From Candidatus Cloacimonadales bacterium (GTDB lineage: Bacteria; Cloacimonadota; Cloacimonadia; Cloacimonadales; JAIOQZ01), in the NCBI GenBank assembly GCA_963674825.1, contig OY771587.1, positions 1,952,001 through 2,016,000 on the forward strand: a stretch of 64,000 nt of DNA. The letters run 5' to 3'. The notes under the pieces were generated by a model that was given only the letters and a program-made list of their open reading frames with translations, ran no database searches and was not told the origin of the DNA. Below are positions 3,647 through 21,668 of this stretch, in pieces. Made by a program: the position numbers and the translations under genes. How positions within the stretch are numbered: the stretch's first letter is position 1; every line of letters starts with the position of its first letter.

Positions 3647-4093
3647 TCAGCCGGCCTTGGCAACCGCATCGTCGGAGAGCAGGCGGAACTTCAGATCGTA
3701 ATCGGGGTGATCCAGTACTACCTGTTTTCCGAGGTTGTTCACGGTGTTGATGAGGAGCGGACCTTTGAGGTTCGCGGTCATCTTGCTCGGGTCCTTGGGA
3801 ACGGTGACGATCACAAGCTGTGCGACACGCGTCGGGTCATCGACTTCGATTTCTTCCAGGTCGGCTTTATAGAGCCGAATCTGGTAGTCGGGCTTAAAAA
3901 TGAGCGGATCGGTCACCACAAACGCGAGGTCGGGTGATTCCATGCTCTGGAGCCACTTCAGAGGTGACTTTTTGTTGGAATCGATCAGCACGTAGTCCTT
4001 GTAGCCGGCAAAGCCGAGGATGCCGCTTGGGAACGTGATCTTGGTCTTGGGATCGATTTCAATCTCGCCGAATCGTTTTGTCTTGATTTTCAT
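3647..4093 (-). CDS. fliW: Flagellar assembly factor FliW
   Basis: TKRFGEIEI, FPSGILGF, WLQS, MTANLKGPLLIN motifs. Confidence 0.95.
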   Translation of the reverse strand: MKIKTKRFGEIEIDPKTKITFPSGILGFAGYKDYVLIDSNKKSPLKWLQSMESPDLAFVVTDPLIFKPDYQIRLYKADLEEIEVDDPTRVAQLVIVTVPKDPSKMTANLKGPLLINTVNNLGKQVVLDHPDYDLKFRLLSDDAVAKAG

Positions 4094-4107: not shown

Positions 4108-5280
4108 TTATAAATAATTAAGCAGACTTTCGGATAGAACACTACTCAGCATGGAAGTGGTGGTGGAAAGCGCCGTTTCGAGCAAAGAGAGTTGTGAAAT
4201 AGCATCCACCAGATCTGTTTCGGAGACATTCTCGATGTTGGACGTCAGGTTCGTTTCCACGCTAACGAGGTTGTTGCGTGCGACTTCGATCCTGTTCAGG
4301 CGGGTTCCCGCCGCGGCCAGCGTATTCTCGAAGGTGTCCTGAACCGCTTCAAGGTCTTCGAGAGCTTTCGCTATGGCATCGGAATCTCCATTTTCCAAAG
4401 CGATCTTGAGATTGTACATGGTATCGATCAGTCCGGTGTCTTCAGCTACTTCCTGCCCGGTGAAATTGGATATGATACGAGTTGATTTGCTCATATTGAA
4501 TTCAATTTCGCCATCATCACCATTATAGGCTCCGGAGCGGACATACAGCTTGAATTCGTCGCCTTCGGCGAACGTTCCGTCTGTAAAGCTTGCCTGGACA
4601 CCAAGGTCCTCACCGTTTACGTCGTCGTAAACCGATATCGTACTTGAAAGCGTCAGTTGACTTCCCCAGGTGGCACCGCCATCTTCAGAAACCTGATATT
4701 GGGCGGTACCGACGTCGCCGCCGGATATGATCCGTACCAGATATTCTTTCTCGGATGTGCCGGTGAATTCCCCGGAAGTGGTCATCGTACCCTCATAGGT
4801 ATTGGCACTGGATGCATAACCTGGCAGGATCCTTCCGTAATTGAGGTAGGCCTGCTCGTTGGTGTTGTATCCAGAGAAGAGGTAACGATTGTTCTGTTTG
4901 GTGTTAAGAGCTTGGAACATTTGTTCGATCATGCCTCCAACCTCATCGGAGCCAACCGCATATGTCGTAGCATTCGCTGTACCGGTTGCGTTCAATTCGG
5001 CAACCTCTCTCGCCTGGGCCAGAAGGTCGCTGATTTCCGACAAAGACTGCTCGGCAGCCGTCAGGTATTGCTCGGCGTCGTCCATGTTATCCTGATACCG
5101 TTGATTCGCTGCCAGATCGGCAGAGTATCTCATGTACATGACGGTACCTGTGGGGTCATCCGACGCATTGTTCAGCGATTTGCCCGTGGTGATTTCTTCT
5201 TGCAGCTCCCGATATTGCTCGAGCCGTTTGTTCAGCTGAGCATATACGGTTTGATACGCCATCTGGGTTGTGATTCTCAC
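4108..5280 (-). CDS. flgL: Flagellar hook-associated protein 3 FlgL
   Basis: Flagellin-like N-terminus (RITTQM...TGKSLNNASDDP) and RYLFSG motif; GTG start at 5280 with GGAGG RBS. Confidence 0.9.
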   Translation of the reverse strand: MRITTQMAYQTVYAQLNKRLEQYRELQEEITTGKSLNNASDDPTGTVMYMRYSADLAANQRYQDNMDDAEQYLTAAEQSLSEISDLLAQAREVAELNATGTANATTYAVGSDEVGGMIEQMFQALNTKQNNRYLFSGYNTNEQAYLNYGRILPGYASSANTYEGTMTTSGEFTGTSEKEYLVRIISGGDVGTAQYQVSEDGGATWGSQLTLSSTISVYDDVNGEDLGVQASFTDGTFAEGDEFKLYVRSGAYNGDDGEIEFNMSKSTRIISNFTGQEVAEDTGLIDTMYNLKIALENGDSDAIAKALEDLEAVQDTFENTLAAAGTRLNRIEVARNNLVSVETNLTSNIENVSETDLVDAISQLSLLETALSTTTSMLSSVLSESLLNYL

Positions 5281-5281
5281 C

Positions 5282-5527
5282 TTAACCTCCCATTTTACCA
5301 CTCAGAAGTTCGTTCAATTTATCAAACGATGTTTGATCAATGACAGTTTTGGACGCTTTCTGATTTTCTTTCAGAATTTTCTCATAGATCTCTTTGCGAT
5401 AGACCGGTAGCGCTTTGGGCGCTCTAATACCAATTCTTGCCGATGTTTTGTTCATCTCTGCGAGCACGATCTCAATATCGTCTCCGACGATAATCGACTC
5501 GCCAATTTTTCTGGTCAAAATTAACAT
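5282..5527 (-). CDS. csrA: Carbon storage regulator CsrA
   Basis: MLILTRKIGESIIVGDDI...RIGIRAPK...VYRKEIY, with a C-terminal extension of the FliW-binding type. Confidence 0.95.
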   Translation of the reverse strand: MLILTRKIGESIIVGDDIEIVLAEMNKTSARIGIRAPKALPVYRKEIYEKILKENQKASKTVIDQTSFDKLNELLSGKMGG

Positions 5528-5586: not shown

Positions 5587-6963
5587 TCAGCCGACCAGTC
5601 CTATGACTGTTCCCATAAGCTCATCGGCCATTTCGATGATTTTGGCTGCCGCTTGGTAGGATCTCTGGTAGTTCAAGAGATTCACAGATTCCTCATCCAG
5701 CGACACACCTTTCACAGATTCCCTATAATTATCGATTTGATTTGTCGTCAGTTCCAATGTCTCTGCCTGCGTTTCGGCGGTGGAGGTGTCTTTTCCTATT
5801 TGCGAGATTGTTGAAGCGTAATACTCGCCAAAGGTCTGATTCCCCATCGACGTATCGGAACGCAGTCCTGCTATTTGAAGTGCAATACGGTTATCGCCCT
5901 CTTCTCCACCCAGAGAAGTGGCTATCTTATCCGGCGAATTGGCGATCGCGTCCGAGAGACGGAAATCGGCAGCGCCGGTTATGTCCGATGCGAAAAAGTC
6001 GAGATTTGTAGAAGGAGGATCGCCAATACCGCTACCCTGACGGTGGATGGCGTTGAACTGCTGACTGAGGTTGACGGCCAGGTTGTCCAGCCGGTCCATG
6101 TAGTTCGTAAGATGTTCGTCGCGCAGCTTTAGGAGGCCATTGAGCTGGCCCTGTGTGAGCCCGTTGATACCGGATTGTGTATCTGCCCAGTCGAGTGTGC
6201 TCTTCTGGAGGCCATCGACGACCCTTGTTCTCACTTCGATATGCCGTGCCGAGTCGTGCGTCACCAGCTGATCGGTCCCGAAATAGACGACTCTGCTGCC
6301 CGATGCGGTTTCCTGCACCGATACGTTACCATACTGTGAGAGTTCGTCCAGCAGTGCATCATACTTGTCTTCGAGATCGTTCGCGGGAGTTCCCTGCTGT
6401 CGAGCCATCGTGATCTGCTTGTTTAGCCCGGCGAGTTCGTCCGCAATACCGTTGACTTCTGAAGCCACGGTCTGGATTTCCTCATCGACCTCTGTGTACT
6501 TGTCCGAAATCGTTCCATAGACTCGTTGGAACGAATTCGAGAGCTTCTCGGCCGCGCTGAGGACGCTAAGCCTGTAGGTCGAATCGGCGGGATTGTCCGC
6601 GAGGGCTTCCCATGAATCCCAGAATGCACTGAGATCGGTTGCCAGTCCATAGTCCGAGAGTTCATTCAGCTCCGATTCCAGTTCCTGGAGCTTTTCGGAC
6701 ATCCTTCCCCACGAATTCAGCTCGGAGTTCTCCTCACGGTAGCTATCATCGAGGTAAAGGTCGCGCATACGCTCGATACGCACGGCTTCCACGCCTGTTC
6801 CATAGTAGGCGTTGTAATCGGAAACCGGTATGCTGCTTTCCTGAATCACGCGTTGCCGGCTATATCCTTCGGTATTCACGTTGGATATGTTATGACCGGT
6901 CGTCTGCAGATTCTGCTCAGCAACCGAAAGCGCTTTGCGCCCTATGGACAATAGGTCGAACAT
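5587..6963 (-). CDS. flgK: Flagellar hook-associated protein 1 FlgK
   Basis: TTGHNISNVNTEGYSRQ and GVSLDEESVNLLNYQRSYQAAAK. Confidence 0.95.
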   Translation of the reverse strand: MFDLLSIGRKALSVAEQNLQTTGHNISNVNTEGYSRQRVIQESSIPVSDYNAYYGTGVEAVRIERMRDLYLDDSYREENSELNSWGRMSEKLQELESELNELSDYGLATDLSAFWDSWEALADNPADSTYRLSVLSAAEKLSNSFQRVYGTISDKYTEVDEEIQTVASEVNGIADELAGLNKQITMARQQGTPANDLEDKYDALLDELSQYGNVSVQETASGSRVVYFGTDQLVTHDSARHIEVRTRVVDGLQKSTLDWADTQSGINGLTQGQLNGLLKLRDEHLTNYMDRLDNLAVNLSQQFNAIHRQGSGIGDPPSTNLDFFASDITGAADFRLSDAIANSPDKIATSLGGEEGDNRIALQIAGLRSDTSMGNQTFGEYYASTISQIGKDTSTAETQAETLELTTNQIDNYRESVKGVSLDEESVNLLNYQRSYQAAAKIIEMADELMGTVIGLVG

Positions 6964-6965
6964 GC

Positions 6966-7466
6966 CTAAATCCTCTTGTTCAGAAGAATTGAGCTTCTCT
7001 TCTGGTTGATCATTCCCACGCGACTGTAAACGCGGTCGCGGTCAATGATATCCGCGATCATTTCCAGGTTGTCTCCCACCATCTCCAAGCCGGTGCGGAT
7101 CAGTTCTTTATTCTCCGCGGAGAGCTTGTCGATTGTCTTGAGCGTGTTGGCAAAGACCTTGAAGAACACCTGTGCTTTCTCCCGCTCTTCGGGTTCGGAA
7201 AAGACACAGTCGATATTCTTCAGGGAGGTCTCTTCGATGCCCACACCCACCGTCAACGCCAGCGTTTCCATCAGGTCGTTCCGTTCGTTGGTGGTGTTGT
7301 GTGCGCGGCCGATCAACAGCGCTGCCCTTTGGCTGACTTCCTGGAACTGACGGATATCCCATTTCATTAAAGCGTACTTTTGCTCTGAAAGTACGAGTGC
7401 TACTTCCTGGTAAGCGGCAATCTCCTCTTCCCAGGCGTTGAAAAAATCTCTTTTCAGGGTATCCAT
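6966..7466 (-). CDS. flgN: FlgN-like flagellar export chaperone
   Basis: Helical ~166 aa protein between flgJ and flgK with a L..EN..LI motif; ATG at 7466 with GAAGGAG RBS. Confidence 0.6.
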   Translation of the reverse strand: MDTLKRDFFNAWEEEIAAYQEVALVLSEQKYALMKWDIRQFQEVSQRAALLIGRAHNTTNERNDLMETLALTVGVGIEETSLKNIDCVFSEPEEREKAQVFFKVFANTLKTIDKLSAENKELIRTGLEMVGDNLEMIADIIDRDRVYSRVGMINQKRSSILLNKRI

Positions 7467-7479
7467 CTTGACTCCTTCT

Positions 7480-8331
7480 TTATTGCATCGATTCGTAATA
7501 ATCCATAACTCGTCGCACGTAGTGCTGGGTCTCTTTGAACGGCGGAATACCGTTGTGCTTATCGACATTTCCAGGACCGGCATTGTATGCTGCCAGCGCT
7601 AATTGGACGTCACCTTCATAGCGATCCATCATCATCTTGAGGTAGCGAACGCCACCCTGAATGTTCTGCTCAGGATCGAACGAATCCTGTACGCCAAGTC
7701 CTTCCGCTGTCTTGTCCATGAGCTGCATCAGACCCTTTGCGCCAGCGTGTGATTCAGCGTTGGGATTGCCGTAGCTCTCCTGTGCGATGACCGCCTTGAC
7801 CAGGTTCTCGTCCACACCGTACTTGTCGGCGATCTCCACGATGATCGGTTCGTATTCCCGAAGACGATCTGCGAGAGTCTTGCCGATGGGCTGCGCGGTT
7901 TTTTCCACGACTTTCTCGGCAACTTCCTGCACCGTTTCCGTTGTTTTGGTCAGGGGCTTCTTCGTGCGAATGTAGTCTTTCTCTGAGAGGTTTCGCAGGC
8001 TTTCGATGGGATCCTGATCCTGTGCATCGAACTGCTTCATGATCTGCTTCGAGAGGCCGAAATCGCCTTTCTTCGAGATGTTCATGGCGATCTGCTGCAG
8101 GAACATTTCCTGATACCAGTCGCCACCCGGGACATCGCCCAGCATGGATGCATTCTCGAGTGTCTCGGTCATTGCTGAAAGCATCTGCCGTACGAAAATC
8201 GCCTCGAATTCCTGCGCTGCTTCTTCCGCTTTATCGCGGTCGAAATCCTTGATCTGCTCACCGAGTTTCTTGAACTTCTCGGCGTCGATCCGCTGGATTT
8301 GCAGTGCTTGTTGTCCTTCGAGTGCGATCAT
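7480..8331 (-). CDS. flgJ: FlgJ rod-binding domain fused to SLT lytic transglycosylase
   Basis: [17 protein letters not shown] (rod-binding) plus [26 protein letters not shown] (SLT). Confidence 0.85.
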
Positions 8332-8340
8332 ACCATGCTC

Positions 8341-9426
8341 CTACATGATTACCAGCTCGGCCTGTAATGCGCCGGCTGCCTTGAGTGACTGAAAAATGGA
8401 TATAAGATCACGCGGTGTGACTTTAATGCTATTAAGTGCACGGGCGAGTTCCTGTACGGTGCTCGATTCCAGCACCATAACCCGTGCGGGTTCGTTTATC
8501 GCGGAGATTGTTCCGTATTCGCTCGTCTGTTCGGCCATTCCCCAGCCGACACTCTCTGTTTCCGTATAGGTGTTGATCTTGATCATCAGGTTGCCATGCG
8601 CCACTGCCACTTCGGAAAGCTCGACATTGCCGCCGGCGACGATCGTTCCTGTACGCTCGTTGATGACAACGCGCGCTTTCTGCTCGGGAACCACTTCGAG
8701 ATTTTCGATCGTCGAGATGAAGCCGATCAGCTTCTTTTGAACCAGCACCGAGTCGGGTACTACGATCTGCACGGAACTTGCATCTTCCGGCGCTGCCAGA
8801 CGATATTCGAAATGTGCGTTGATCGCTTCAGCGACACGTTGTGCAGTAGTAAAATCGGGATTTTGAAGATTGATGAGCAGCTCGCCGTTGTAGAGCATCT
8901 GACTATAGACTTCTTTCTCCACCACAGCGCCGTCGGGAATCCGTCCCACCAGCGCGAAGTTCTTACGAACTTTCGCACCTGCCGTGCTGGAATTGAAACC
9001 GCCGATGGAGATCGCGCCCTGCGCCATCGCGTAGAGCTCTTCATCGATACCGAGAAGCGGCGTCATAAGAAGCGTTCCGCCTTCAAGGCTCTTGGCGTCA
9101 CCCACGGAAGAGACGGTTACATCGAAACGACTGCCCGACTTGGAAAAAGCCGGAAGCGTTGCGGTAACGATTACCGCTGCAACGTTGTTGGGCCGAATCT
9201 TGTTCTCCGCGATTGTCAGGCCGAACCGCTCCATCATATTCTTGATCGATTGGATCGTCATCTGACTGCTGCTGCCGTCGCCAGTCCCATCCAGGCCAAC
9301 CACTAGCCCGTAGCCGATAAGCTGCTTCGATTCCAGACCGCTGAAACCGGCGATGTCCTTTAACCGGACCTGCGCATGCATGAGCACGACGCTCAGTAGT
9401 AACGCAAGAAACACGGCTCTCTTCAT
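8341..9426 (-). CDS. flgI: Flagellar P-ring protein FlgI
   Basis: RLKDIA, LIGYGLVVGLDGTGD, GDAKSLEGGTLL, VVINERTGTIV; signal peptide from ATG at 9426. Confidence 0.97.
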   Translation of the reverse strand: MKRAVFLALLLSVVLMHAQVRLKDIAGFSGLESKQLIGYGLVVGLDGTGDGSSSQMTIQSIKNMMERFGLTIAENKIRPNNVAAVIVTATLPAFSKSGSRFDVTVSSVGDAKSLEGGTLLMTPLLGIDEELYAMAQGAISIGGFNSSTAGAKVRKNFALVGRIPDGAVVEKEVYSQMLYNGELLINLQNPDFTTAQRVAEAINAHFEYRLAAPEDASSVQIVVPDSVLVQKKLIGFISTIENLEVVPEQKARVVINERTGTIVAGGNVELSEVAVAHGNLMIKINTYTETESVGWGMAEQTSEYGTISAINEPARVMVLESSTVQELARALNSIKVTPRDLISIFQSLKAAGALQAELVIM

Positions 9427-9524
9427 TTTCTTTACCTCATAAATTGGTTTTCCACTTGGGCACATCGTTGCCGAGACGCTATGCCCGATCGGAAAATTTA
9501 CCGAACCAGATGGGCGTTGTGAAA

Positions 9525-9603
9525 GGCTGTCTCTCGTAATCCGCAGCCATAAAACTGTTGTCTCTCGTAATCAACAGCACGAATTGATGTCATTCGTAAT
9601 CAA
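9525..9603 (-). repeat. Three tandem stem-loops with a shared loop motif in the flgI upstream region
   Basis: TGTCTCTCGTAATC at 9528 and 9559 and TGTCATTCGTAATC at 9588, each flanked by a different complementary stem. Confidence 0.75.
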
Positions 9604-9734
9604 CCACACGGCCAATGAAGACAACCACATCCCCATCAGCCACTTGATTGGAATCGGATAACCACTTCCTCTTCCTCTCGTTTTCCACCGTCGTGGAACC
9701 CATCATTTTTCACGTTATGTTTGCTGACTAATTT

Positions 9735-9751
9735 TGCATGAGCTATGCCAA
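9735..9751 (-). promoter_or_regulatory. Sigma54 (-24/-12) promoter of the flagellar operon
   Basis: Minus strand TTGGCATAGCTCATGCA has exact GG-N10-GC spacing, ~310 bp upstream of flgI. Confidence 0.7.
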
Positions 9752-13021: not shown

Positions 13022-16000
13022 GAAATTCCTGCTCATCCTGCTGCTCACAGCGCTGTTGATGCCGTTAATGGCTGAAGCTTCTTATAAGCTGCCTTACACG
13101 CTGAACGGCTACTACCCGTTGGTTGACAACAAAATCGACATCCTCAAATACCCACACGGCGTTGGCCTGGGATTGATAAATGCCCGGATCAAACCTGACT
13201 TCGAATTCACCACGCGAGAGGTGGTCGATATCGAGGATTCACTCGTTGTGATGGTTGCGGAATATCATGGAATCGAGTATCCGTTGCAGATAATTGTCAC
13301 GTTCGATCAATATATCAACAACCAGATGGTGGCATCATTCCACAAGATGTTGCGTGAACAGGCTATGCAGCAAATTCAGGATGGTGAGAAGGAAACCGGT
13401 GAAGGTATCTTCGGTAAGGAACTTTCTATCGACCTTCCCAAAATGGCGCTTCCAAAGGTTGTTAAAGATTTCATGGGCGATAAGGCTGCCCGGCTGAATA
13501 TTGACGGTAGCGAGAAACTGACATTCCGCGTGGGAAGTACCAAGAATGACAACGCCCAGTACAGTGAAAGCGGATCGTCGGAAGACCTCGACCTCGACCT
13601 CAAGCAGGAGCTTCGGCTTCGGCTTCGCGGTACGATTGGTGAGAAAATCCATGTGAATATCACCCATACTTCCGTTTCCGACGAAGAGATCGGTAATCCG
13701 AATACGATCGAGATCAAATATGTCGGTAACGAGGACGAAATCGTTCAAACGATCGAGGGTGGAAATATTTCCCTAGCGCTATCGGGCTCGAAGATCAATT
13801 ATTCGGCATCATCGGAAAGTCTTTTCGGTATCAAAGCAACCATGAAAGCAGGACCGCTCGATTTGACCTATATCCTGGGTAAGGAAGAGGGCGAAAAGAA
13901 TACGGAGTCATACACCGGGCAATCGCAGGAAGACTCACTTACCTTCTACAGCCAGAACTATGCGCATCGCTCTTACTTCTACATCGATGACCCGAAAGCT
14001 CTCTATGCGATCTACGGTATCGATACCGACTTACCTGATAATCTTCCCGAGACGTGGTCTGGCAACGCGATCGTGACCGGCTCTGGTGGCGAGTGGATGA
14101 TCAAGTCGCCGCAGTTGCTTCCCGATGAAAACTCGGTTCGCGTTTTCGTGGACGACCATAACTATAACAACGATACGGTGGATTCTTTCCCGGGTATTTC
14201 GTGGAACGAACCGGAAAACACGACCGAATACAGATTCGAAGAGCTCTTCGAGGGTACGGACTTCACGTTCGACTACGGAACGGGTATTCTGTCGATCGAA
14301 AAATCTATTACCGACCTTTACACAGTAGGTGTTACTTACACGCTCAACAATGAGCAGATTGGCGATCCATCGACGACCAACCTGCAAGTCAAGCTGTTGA
14401 AGAAGAAGAATCAGACAGAATTGGACAACACTTGGAAATACGAGATGCGCAACATCTACGATCTGAACATGCAAAATGTGAAGAGCGAAGGTTTCAAGGT
14501 GAACGTCTATACGGTGGTTGACGGCGGTTCGGAACTGGTGTATGCAGTGCCGGACGACATCGATATGGGTACCGTGGGCTCAACTTACAACGACTACCTG
14601 CGTCTCGATAGCAACGGTGACGATCTTATCAACGGTGACGACAACACCATCAACCTCAGCAGCGGTATCGTAATTTTCCCATTCCTGGAGCCATTCTACG
14701 CTTTGGGCGACTCTATCATCTACACCGATGAATCCACAATTACCAGCACCGATACGCAGATGCGTATGTATGTTGTCGGTAAGGTTGGTCGTGACCAGAT
14801 TTCGCTCAATCAGCTCAACATCGTCAAGGGTAGCGTCTCGGTGAAGGTTAACGGAAAGACCCTTGAAGAGAATGTCGATTATACGGTTGATTACGATTTC
14901 GGAACCGTGACCTTCCTCTCGTCTGAAGCAAAGGATCCTACCGCCGAAATTGAGATCGATTACGAATACAGGCCTATCTTCGCTATCTCATCGCGCATCA
15001 TGACCGGTGTCCGTGCTGACTTGAAGCTTGGCGACAACGCCCGTCTCGGCGGTACGTTCATCTACCACTCGGAAGAAGTGGAAGAAAAGCGTCCCAAAAT
15101 CGGCAGCGAAAACAAGATCCAGATGATGGCCGGTCTCGATGGAGAAATCAGCATCGACATGCCGCTCCTTACCCGGATCGTCGATTGGATTCCACTGGTT
15201 AAAACTGACGCCGAATCGGAAGTGAGCCTCTCCAGCGAAGTTGCGATCAACATCCCGCAGATATACGGCGATCCCGATAAAAAAGGTGATCCCGAAGCAT
15301 ATCTGGAAGACATGGAATCGATCCTCAGCACGTTCCCGCTGGGAACCACACGTGCAACCTGGGTGCCCGGTAGCAAGCCACTGAATTATAACTATGGCAA
15401 AGCCGATATCAACTGGTATAATCCGACCGATATCTACATGAATGATGTTTATGACGACGATCTGCTGACCGAAGACGAGAAAAATGAAAAGGTCTCGCTG
15501 ATGCAGGTTCGTGTGCTTACACCGGAAATCCATATGCCGGGAATCAACCGGAAATATTGGGCCGGACTTCAGAAATATATCGGTAACCAACTTGATTTCT
15601 CTGAAAAGAAGTACATCGAGATCATGGTCAAGGCAGACAGCGTTGATTCGCCGATCAACATCCACATCGACCTGGGTGATGTCAGTGAAGACTTCTATAC
15701 CGATTTTGGCGGCCTGGGTGTGCTCAATACCGAAGATGGTAAAAACGGCGGTGACTTCGACGGCGCTTACGACTACAAAGAAGACATCGGTCTGGACGGA
15801 TATCCGAACGGTAATCCGCTCGATGATCCGAACGACAACTTCAGCAACGACAAAGTAAACAACATCTACCCATATATCAACGGTACCGAGGACAACAAGA
15901 GTCTGGATACGGAAGATCTCGACGAAAACGGTAGTCTCGATACCACGAACAGGTATCTGGAGTACACGGTCTCGCTCAATTCCGATCAATTCCTGGAGAG

Positions 16001-19812: not shown

Positions 19813-19865
19813 GTAGGCATGGAAACACCAACGATTTTCATTGTAAAGCAAATCTTCGAGTGATC

Positions 19866-21668
19866 ATGAAAAATAAAACCGCGATCATCAGCACCGCAGG
19901 GCATATCGACCATGGGAAGACTGCGCTCATTCGCGCGCTGACAGGCTTCGACTGCGATACCCACAAGCTGGAGAAAGAGCGCGGAATTACCATTTCACTC
20001 GGCTTCACAAGGCTCGACCTCGACAACGGTACTCGTTGCGGGATCATCGATTGCCCCGGGCATCACGATTTCATCCACACGATGGTCGCCGGATCGAGCG
20101 GAATCGATCTCGCACTGGTAACTGTGGCTGCCGACGAAGGAATCATGCCTCAGACCATCGAGCACCTTCGTATCCACGATTTACTGGGTGTTACAAACCG
20201 CATTTACGTCATCACCCGCTGCGATCTTGTCAGTAAAGAAATTGCCGATGCGCTGCAATACACCCTTAATTCTCAGTTCAATGCACCAGTTGTTCAAACC
20301 TCGGCTGTGACCGGAGAGGGTATCGAAAAACTGCATGGATTGATCCAGTGCAGCCTGTCCGATGTTAAACCGCAATTTCTGGATACAGCATTCCGTATGC
20401 CGATCGATCGTATCTTCTCCATTGCAGGTCACGGCCTCGTCATTGGTGGAACTGTACGAACGGGAGTTTTACAGAGATCTGATCCAATATACTTGTTGCC
20501 GGGAGAAAAGAAGCTGCGTATCCGACGAATGGAGTGTTTTGGTGAGTCGGTGGATTCGGTATCTGCTGGGCAACGTACCTCGATCAATATAACCGGCGTA
20601 AAGCGCGAAGATTTGCATCTCGGTATGCAGATTTCCTGCTTTGCAATTCCTTTCACACTGCGGATTGATGCGTCGATCCGGCTATTCGAGGACGCTCAGG
20701 AGCTGGGAATATGGAGCCGTGTGCTTTTTTTGCAGAATGGCGTACGCATGCCGGTATCTGTTCATCTGTTAGATCGGGACACGCTGGCTTCAGGTCATTC
20801 CGGGCTGGCTCAGATCGATTTCGATTCACCTCACATAAGTCTCTATGGGGAGCAATTCGTTCTGCGCGATTCCTCGGATAGAACCACCATTGGTGGAGGA
20901 TTCGTTCTCGACCCGCATCCGCGGCACCACCGCCGCAGGAGACGGCACCAGATTGAATCGTTGCTCAGGCTCGAAAATGGGGGTGTAGATGAGCTTATTC
21001 GCCAAAAGGCGGATGGAATATCCGGTTGCTTCGAAGCGGCGCAAATTGCTGCTGAAAACGGCCTTTCTTTGATGTCGATTATCAGACACCCGGATGTCAT
21101 ATCAGTCAACCGAAAAGGATTCTATCTCGCACGGTCTGTTTTGGATCGAATCGAGAAGAGAATTCTGGATAGGCTGTCAATTTCAGGAGGGCTTTCAACT
21201 GTGGATTTGACCGACGGTAGATCCGAGGAAGAGTTTGCGCTGAAAGTACTCCAGAAGTCGGGACGTGTACAGCATTCTGATGGTCGCTGGTCGCTACCGG
21301 TTACTCAGAGTGAAATCGATCGTGCCTGTGAGGCTGTACTTGCGTATATGCTGCGCGAGAACCGGGAAATCGTGGTCAAAGAGGGTATGATCCGTGAGAT
21401 GGCAAGGATGGATATCGATAAGCATCGGCTGCGCATAGCACTGGATCATCTGGTAAAGACCGACCGGGTTATCCGCCATGAAGCGTGCTATATACACAGC
21501 TTTCTGCTCGATCGGGCAATCGCGACAGCGCAGCGATTAGCATGCTTCTCGGTGCGGGATTTCCGCGATGAAATGGGATGCAGTCGAGGGACAGCAATCG
21601 TGCTGCTGGAATACCTGGACAGCGATGGAAAGACCCGTCGTGAGGGCGATACCAGGATTTTTGTGTGA
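19866..21668 (+). CDS. selB: Selenocysteine-specific elongation factor SelB
   Basis: [28 protein letters not shown]-terminal winged helix FRDEMGCSR...LLEYLD. Confidence 0.93.

Follow-up and report, generated by a model that had tools for sequence, protein, structure and literature searches.

A conserved, undescribed element upstream of flgI in Cloacimonadota is a likely base-pairing regulator of flagellin synthesis

Introduction

In the genome of a Candidatus Cloacimonadales bacterium, the minus-strand leader region between the divergent ruvB gene and the flgI-flgJ-flgN-flgK-csrA-flgL-fliW operon carries three copies of the motif GATTACGA-NN-GACA (9588-9601, 9559-9572 and 9528-9541, spaced by 29 and 31 nt), and the question raised by this locus is what such a repeated motif does at the head of a flagellar operon. 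An earlier sequence-only reading proposed that the repeats are hairpin loops of an RNA that binds CsrA or another protein. Positions given here are those of the window, that is, the whole stretch of 64,000 nucleotides that was analysed, unless they are said to be genome positions. One contig covers this stretch with no differing letters and may be the source of the DNA, and the sequence of the region was confirmed by two DNA-type contig sets. The threefold occurrence of the core is unusual, as it was found in none of 2,000 shuffles of the region and in 27 of 12,976 genome windows of 300 nt.

Organization of the locus

Two claims about the setting of the repeats were confirmed: a sigma-54-type GG-N10-GC site lies at 9736..9750 on the minus strand, with an inferred transcription start at about 9724, and the downstream operon does contain csrA and fliW. 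The candidate RNA, which we call A, would extend from this predicted start to flgI as a 298-nt leader of the operon in the source genome (9427..9724, on the minus strand, as are all of the features of A and of the operon). Its 5′ segment (9700..9719) resembles, by eye, the predicted site for the 3′ tail of a second element, B, in the leader of the second flagellin gene, and a small hairpin at 9685..9696 is kept in the four genomes of the genus. These are followed by three modules that overlap the repeats, named R1 (9586..9609), R2 (9560..9577) and R3 (9528..9541), by a box (9500..9516), and by a hairpin 3′ of the box (9458..9486) that shows one compensatory change in a genus relative and has no U-run, but sits where other families have a terminator-like hairpin.

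The operon itself comprises flgI, which encodes the P-ring protein (8341..9426; PF02119), a flgJ-like gene with rod-binding and SLT domains (7480..8331), flgN (6966..7466; PF05130), flgK (5587..6963; PF22638), csrA (5282..5527; PF02599), flgL, assigned from its place in the operon and a weak match to Flagellin_N (4108..5280), and fliW (3647..4093; PF02623). A strict sigma-54 pattern is found upstream of 26 ORF starts genome-wide, many of them non-flagellar, including one at 13566 on the minus strand of the window. Elsewhere in the window (19860-21668, plus strand), there is an ORF for what appears by eye to be a SelB-like GTPase, beside an apparent tRNA gene.

Complementarity to flagellin starts and to element B

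A genome-wide search for the motif had been proposed as a check of the loop model, and its matches lie antisense to flagellin starts. Four further copies of the core are present between 686 and 690 kb of the genome, and three of these lie opposite the starts of flagellins 2-4 (genome 690037, 688942 and 687845, minus strand), which share the start sequence ATG TCA CTC GTA AT. and encode MSLVINHN. The fourth lies in non-coding DNA behind the last flagellin gene, in the 5′ extension of B, where a mimic of the flagellin start (genome ~686622-686639) is the exact 18-nt complement of R2. About 130 nt beyond the mimic, there is an exact 17-nt complement of the box, which corresponds to the arm of B predicted to bind flagellin leaders together with the 5′ strand of the last hairpin of B. 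What had been read as a conserved protein-binding loop is, in other words, the complement of flagellin codons 1-7 and of their mimic.

The modules differ in their preferences. R1 is complementary to the first seven codons of flagellins 2-4, start codon included; it matches flagellin 4 at 22 of 23 nt, has one A.C mismatch to its flagellin targets, and places these three genes at ranks 1, 2 and 3 among 2,920 predicted start regions, compared with ranks 2, 4 and 10 for R2 and 24, 43 and 186 for R3. With opening costs included, R1 reaches -14 to -18 kcal/mol with flagellin mRNA and -8.5 with B, while R2 reaches -21.8 with B and -4 to -11 with the flagellins, and R3, a shorter complement of the mimic, -13.8 with B and -1 to -8 with the flagellins. 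The box reaches -16.1 kcal/mol with B, and because it covers the B arm that matches flagellin leaders, this would be a sponge-type contact. The modules match neither flagellin 1 nor a fifth, divergent flagellin (G000:C1:3739271 / 3740430, minus strand), which is followed by a gene that we take to be FliD-like, with a sigma-54-type site.

Element B and the flagellin leaders

The core of B, itself a candidate structured RNA, lies behind the last flagellin gene at genome C1 686451-686565 (L023:6452-6566, minus strand), and B was recovered in 19 genomes (further examples are L070:3090-3204 and L067:137-253). A model of B matched 14 of 151 sampled genomes of the phylum, all of them FlgI-positive, with no match in G201 (64% complete), G202 (in which the flagellin contig ends early), G225 or G229, and an Rfam search with B returned nothing at E<=5. 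B folds far better on the flagellin strand (-23.96) than on the other strand (-9.03).

Each of the two arms of B has a complement in the flagellin leaders, and the two sites run in antiparallel order. At the second site, which is the strand that pairs beside the ribosome site, the differences against the arm of B are 37 of the G.U type and 2 of the A.C type, mostly at one position in related genomes, whereas the first arm shows no G.U bias (25 G.U versus 14, with 66% expected). In 30 of 39 leaders, folding predictions gave a ribosome site that was more than 1 kcal/mol cheaper to open when the site for B was blocked, compared with 10 of 39 for control blocks; in the source genome, flagellin 3 gained 5.6 and flagellin 4 only 0.5 (from 9.6 to 9.1). 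The second flagellin leader was the best partner of the 3′ tail of B in 17 of the 17 genomes that hold this leader, in a comparison made without a shuffle control. Thus, the folding models, which give closed leaders that B opens, predict that B unlocks flagellin leaders. In the predicted folds of the long leaders of flagellins 3 and 4 (L023:7846-7990 and 8943-9085, minus strand), the RNA bends back and covers both the ribosome site and the first codons. By eye, the 5′ strand of these two leaders also resembles the module-then-box layout of A, which suggests a copied flagellin leader as the origin of A.

The 5′ half of B aligns to flagellin C-terminal coding DNA in 17 of 19 genomes, with up to 35 bits and no such alignment among 380 shuffles, and B therefore looks like a collapsed, internally deleted flagellin gene. 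In one genome (G011), the mimic retains its start codon and reads MSLVINNN, and in another (G019, L072), another decayed flagellin start, accompanied by a leader-like stretch, is found upstream of B. A ribosome site and an ORF of 31-35 codons run in frame through the first arm of B (..ILAKSAVAMS..) in seven of eight genomes of families f6 and f10 (G012, G016, G022, G028, G033, G199 and G200, with G038 out of frame), which may represent a relic or a dual-function RNA.

As for other regulators that may act on these genes, flagellin leaders across all genomes mostly carry two CANGGA sequences within 60 nt of the start, one of them overlapping the ribosome site, and are likely CsrA targets to judge from these sites. 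Of 20 genomes, 9 have sigma-28-like sites ahead of the second flagellin and 15 ahead of the first, although the latter lie within coding DNA and were given little weight. No conserved sigma-54 site was found upstream of B, and a sigma-54-like word inside B in 10 of 19 genomes was set aside, as it is a hairpin arm and is not conserved in the other genomes. FliA, a sigma-54 gene and RNase III were found in all five genomes searched, and neither Hfq nor ProQ was found in any of the same five (ProQ with PF04352, for which the E. coli control was positive).

Conservation across Cloacimonadota

FlgI scored above the cut-off in 23 of 232 genomes of the phylum. Two genomes with FlgI-like genes and no flagellin match (G225 and G229) were left out of the counts, and the set comprised 22 flgI loci from 21 genomes, of which the second flgI copy of G003 was dropped from later statistics as a near-duplicate. 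A sigma-54-type site precedes flgI at all 22 loci, with a pattern that was loosened twice to fit all of them, and the box is present at 21 of 22, three of these being degenerate enough to escape a one-mismatch pattern. Two or more exact copies of the box are present in 17 of the 232 genomes, all FlgI-positive, one before flgI and one reversed behind the flagellins; single matches were found in 11 genomes without FlgI, a number near that of a reversed-pattern control (8 genomes), and the B context was absent in the two of these genomes that were inspected.

From the predicted start to flgI, A measures 94-298 nt and carries one to three modules. It has the same orientation at every locus, and its matches persist across six families, with one genome holding the box only and no modules (G038) and another the promoter without A (G201). 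A terminator-like hairpin with a U-run follows the box, at a distance of 2-20 nt, at 13 of 21 loci and at none in the source genus. In family f6 (for example, L010, L015 and L102), B has no start mimic, and A carries instead a 13-15-nt complement of the B segment just before the box-binding arm, so that capture at two sites would persist there with a different second site.

Outside this set, a metagenome scan with FlgI found one locus, the leader of which was identical to one already included, and 17 of the 18 named records that hold B are labelled Candidatus Cloacimonadota or Cloacimonadales. We also observed a contig in a Fibrobacteria-labelled genome (L084) with B and a Cloacimonadota-like flagellin; no match to the FlgI of the window was found in this genome, which is possibly mis-binned. 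A search of the literature, covering mainly openly available papers, found no description of the element or of Cloacimonadota flagellar RNAs, and the only Rfam match of A (E 3.1) lies inside flgI, which gives no credible family. A is a real, conserved and, in the papers covered, undescribed element, and the earlier reading of it as a putative sigma-54-type flagellar RNA element outside any Rfam family is supported.

Tests of base pairing

The complementarities, their conservation and the matched changes between partners are read directly from the sequences. Compared with 300 dinucleotide shuffles, the pairing of A with its own flagellin start reached p<=0.02 at 17 of 21 loci and was not significant in G004, G006, G007 and G038. 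With the box excluded, the pairing of A with its own B reached p<=0.02 in 15 of 19 genomes against 200 shuffles, and the own B took first place in 14 of 19, a place that it shared with the B of close kin in 10 of these and had to itself in 4, although the genomes are related and such counts of pairing and of variants overstate independence. Conserved complementarity to the translation-start region of a distant mRNA, as expected of a trans-acting base-pairing small RNA, is thus present in A.

Individual genomes illustrate how closely the partners follow each other, and the core that had been described as kept in a loop varies between genomes in step with its RNA partners. For example, there is a perfect 22-nt match between A and B in G005 (a score of 22 versus at most 10 for the B of other genomes). 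In G006, the own B scores 18 versus at most 11.5 for those of other genomes, and the A module and the B mimic have changed together while the flagellin starts have not. At flagellin codon 4, the sequence is not the same in G033 and G200, two genomes of one genus, and in each of them A best matches the version of its own genome. Likewise, five variants of the box complement in B are tracked by A, with 6 differences of the G.U type, none of the A.C type and 1 other in 19 genomes.

Flagellin codons 2, 4 and 3 rank 1, 3 and 4 for synonymous conservation among 145 degenerate columns (with GC3 from 0.19 to 0.70), but this constraint does not single out A, because the leaders of later flagellins also pair there in cis (with a probability of 0.8-0.9 for flagellins 3 and 4 of the source genome). 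The modules give no strand preference: their mismatches are 5 G.U versus 6 A.C, against flagellin starts and against B alike, and the duplex of the opposite strands is weaker at 11 of 21 loci and stronger at 10, including the source genome. A model in which A and B are transcribed from the other strands was rejected, since the fold of B is far poorer in that orientation and the differences in the box point to the strands used here; the modules alone do not decide it.

Alternative explanations

Pairing is symmetric, and complementarity alone therefore carries no information on which RNA regulates which. A might be the target, with B, perhaps together with untranslated flagellin mRNA, docking on the modules and box of the nascent flgI operon message and altering its termination, translation or decay as feedback on the sigma-54 operon. 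The same complementarities fit this reading, which would be compatible with a brake on flagellins, and so does the position of the box just ahead of the terminator-like hairpin at 13 of 21 loci, in 8 of which a blocked box is predicted to free the 5′ arm of the terminator by roughly 1 kcal/mol or more. The modules of family f1 also match B better than the real flagellin starts (18-22 versus 6.5-15). Against it, the source genus has no terminator, the terminator effect is small and mostly found in one family, and a cis effect of the box on flgI translation is not predicted in the source genome, where blocking the box leaves access to the flgI ribosome site unchanged (1.3 versus 1.2). Furthermore, the modules of G015 and G016 match flagellin starts and not B, and R1 prefers the flagellins over B. 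This role of A as a target is the main rival of the favoured reading, and we consider it a real but rather unlikely possibility.

A second alternative is that the shared words are double-stranded DNA sites for a regulator, or inert inverted copies of the flagellin locus that recent copying has kept alike. The module strand tests are neutral in this respect, the spacing of the repeats (29 and 31 bp) is close to three helical turns, and B is itself a flagellin relic. Nevertheless, the differences in the box core are all of the G.U type, the joint change of A module and B mimic in G006 occurred with flagellin starts unchanged, and the constant orientation and the matches across six families argue against both versions, which we regard as very unlikely.

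Regarding the hairpins on which the protein-binding proposal was built, the whole leader does fold better than its shuffles (z -2.97), while the three-repeat stretch alone does not (z -0.86). The description of three hairpins with the same loop on different stems did not hold, as the pairing probabilities in the full RNA are about 0 for hairpin 1, 0.48 for hairpin 2 and 0.76 for hairpin 3; similar hairpins occur in two genomes of the same genus, whereas in other families the modules lie in weak or no local hairpins. We thus rejected the three-hairpin covariation model, with hairpin 1 unformed and the stems weak or absent outside the genus. CsrB/RsmZ-type sponges of CsrA carry many ANGGA motifs in hairpin loops. 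Ahead of the box, there are none in the source genome and zero to one at the other 20 loci, and the GGA-rich stretch that had been noted is mostly an insertion absent from three genus relatives; a CsrA sponge of this type was therefore discarded, and the CsrA-type CANGGA sites are found in the flagellin leaders and not in A. Even with hairpins 2 and 3 predicted and recurring in two relatives, and with csrA and fliW in the operon, hairpin loops that bind CsrA or another protein multivalently are an extremely improbable explanation, given the unformed hairpin 1, the scarcity of ANGGA, the stems that fade outside the genus and a core that changes alongside its RNA partners.

Proposed mechanism

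The reading that we favour, with moderate confidence, is that A, a sigma-54-dependent RNA, acts both as a sponge of the activator B and as a block on flagellin starts. The earlier idea of a sponge was probably half right, but multivalent binding of CsrA or another protein is not supported. What follows is inferred as regards the transcription of the two RNAs, the promoter class of each and which RNA controls which. Starting at its sigma-54-type promoter, A would be made as a base-pairing RNA that keeps flagellin translation low, together with the basal-body and hook-junction genes of the sigma-54 class, while the flagellins and B would belong to the sigma-28 class. The leaders of later flagellins would hide the ribosome site, and the arm of B would open it. 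A would capture B at two sites, with R2 and R3 on the start mimic and the box on the active arm, invading the last hairpin of B, while the start codons of flagellins 2-4 would be masked directly by R1. As sigma-28 transcripts came to exceed A in number, this brake would lift. For most other families, we expect A to be a small RNA of 60-170 nt that ends at a terminator before flgI, and in the source genus it may act as the flgI leader or be cut from the flgI message, RNase III being present. It is thus likely, judging from these pairings, that A is a new regulatory RNA that holds back flagellin synthesis, and the earlier proposal that the region regulates flagellar assembly is probably correct.

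A broader and more tentative possibility is that flagellated Cloacimonadota time filament synthesis with a two-way, chaperone-free RNA switch made from pieces of flagellin genes. B would have kept the start of a flagellin gene, now a decoy, and its end, now the activating arm, and A would be a free copy of the inhibitory strand of a flagellin leader. During sigma-54 transcription, A would trap B and block flagellin starts; later, rising levels of B and flagellin mRNA would trap A and attenuate the flgI-csrA-fliW operon, with a threshold switch from hook to filament as the outcome.

If the favoured reading of A as sponge and repressor is true, CsrA-FliW would be joined by a further, post-transcriptional checkpoint that lies between the sigma-54 and the sigma-28 genes, and the circuit would be a clear case of a regulatory RNA born from a dead copy of its own target gene.

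Comparison with known systems

The CsrA-FliW switch is reported to control flagellin mRNA (PMC4894983), and given that the operon contains csrA and fliW and that flagellin leaders carry CANGGA, such a switch probably runs in parallel with A, which, in contrast to CsrB/RsmZ-type sponges, has no repeated ANGGA loops. In the papers compared here, flagellar small RNAs come from Proteobacteria and Campylobacter, so that the circuit predicted here would place two such RNAs in an uncultured phylum, across six families and with Hfq and ProQ not found, on the evidence of genome sequence and of matched changes at two or three separate pairing sites.

Looser analogues are known in two groups. In Campylobacter jejuni, FlmE (CJnc230) and FlmR (CJnc170) are two small RNAs, one of the sigma-54 and one of the sigma-28 class, that act on the flagellar cascade in opposite ways, FlmE being derived from the 3′ end of flgE and repressing flgM, which raises flagellin (PMC11187230). 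A and B would resemble them as a pair of the same two classes with opposite effects, but pairing of FlmE and FlmR with each other or with flagellin starts is not described in the available part of that report. In E. coli, FliX and MotR are sigma-28-dependent, came to light through Hfq, and have their pairing site within the fliC coding sequence (PMC10578931); A would share with them the pairing of a UTR-derived flagellar RNA with flagellin mRNA, but would target the start codon.

The closest known system is that of FlaX and FlaY in Vibrio (PMC11879080; bioRxiv 10.64898/2026.08.28.747715). FlaX is described there as a sigma-54 RNA that originates in a flagellin 3′ UTR, associates with ProQ and is cleaved by RNase E. 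It opens an inhibitory structure in some flagellin leaders, which activates them, and it represses another flagellin; FlaY, of the sigma-28 class, is proposed as a sponge of FlaX. Similarly, B would be an RNA from a flagellin 3′ end that opens inhibitory leader structure, A would be a sigma-54-class RNA that represses flagellin by pairing near the ribosome site, and one RNA would pair with the other. Several differences are also apparent. While activator and repressor are a single RNA in Vibrio, here they would be two separate RNAs, and the classes look reversed, with the activator B behind sigma-28-type flagellins and A in the sigma-54 class. FlaX comes from the 3′ UTR of a sigma-54 major flagellin and is associated with ProQ, which was not found in the five Cloacimonadota genomes searched, whereas A lies 5′ of flgI, at the 5′ end of its operon, with repeated modules and a predicted role as both sponge and repressor, and B lies behind the last flagellin. 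An exact 23-nt pattern of B had no Vibrio match among GTDB species genomes, and a distant homology with FlaX may still exist. Thus, A is predicted from its sequence to work like a base-pairing repressor and sponge comparable to the Vibrio pair, but from another locus and without the ProQ features of FlaX.
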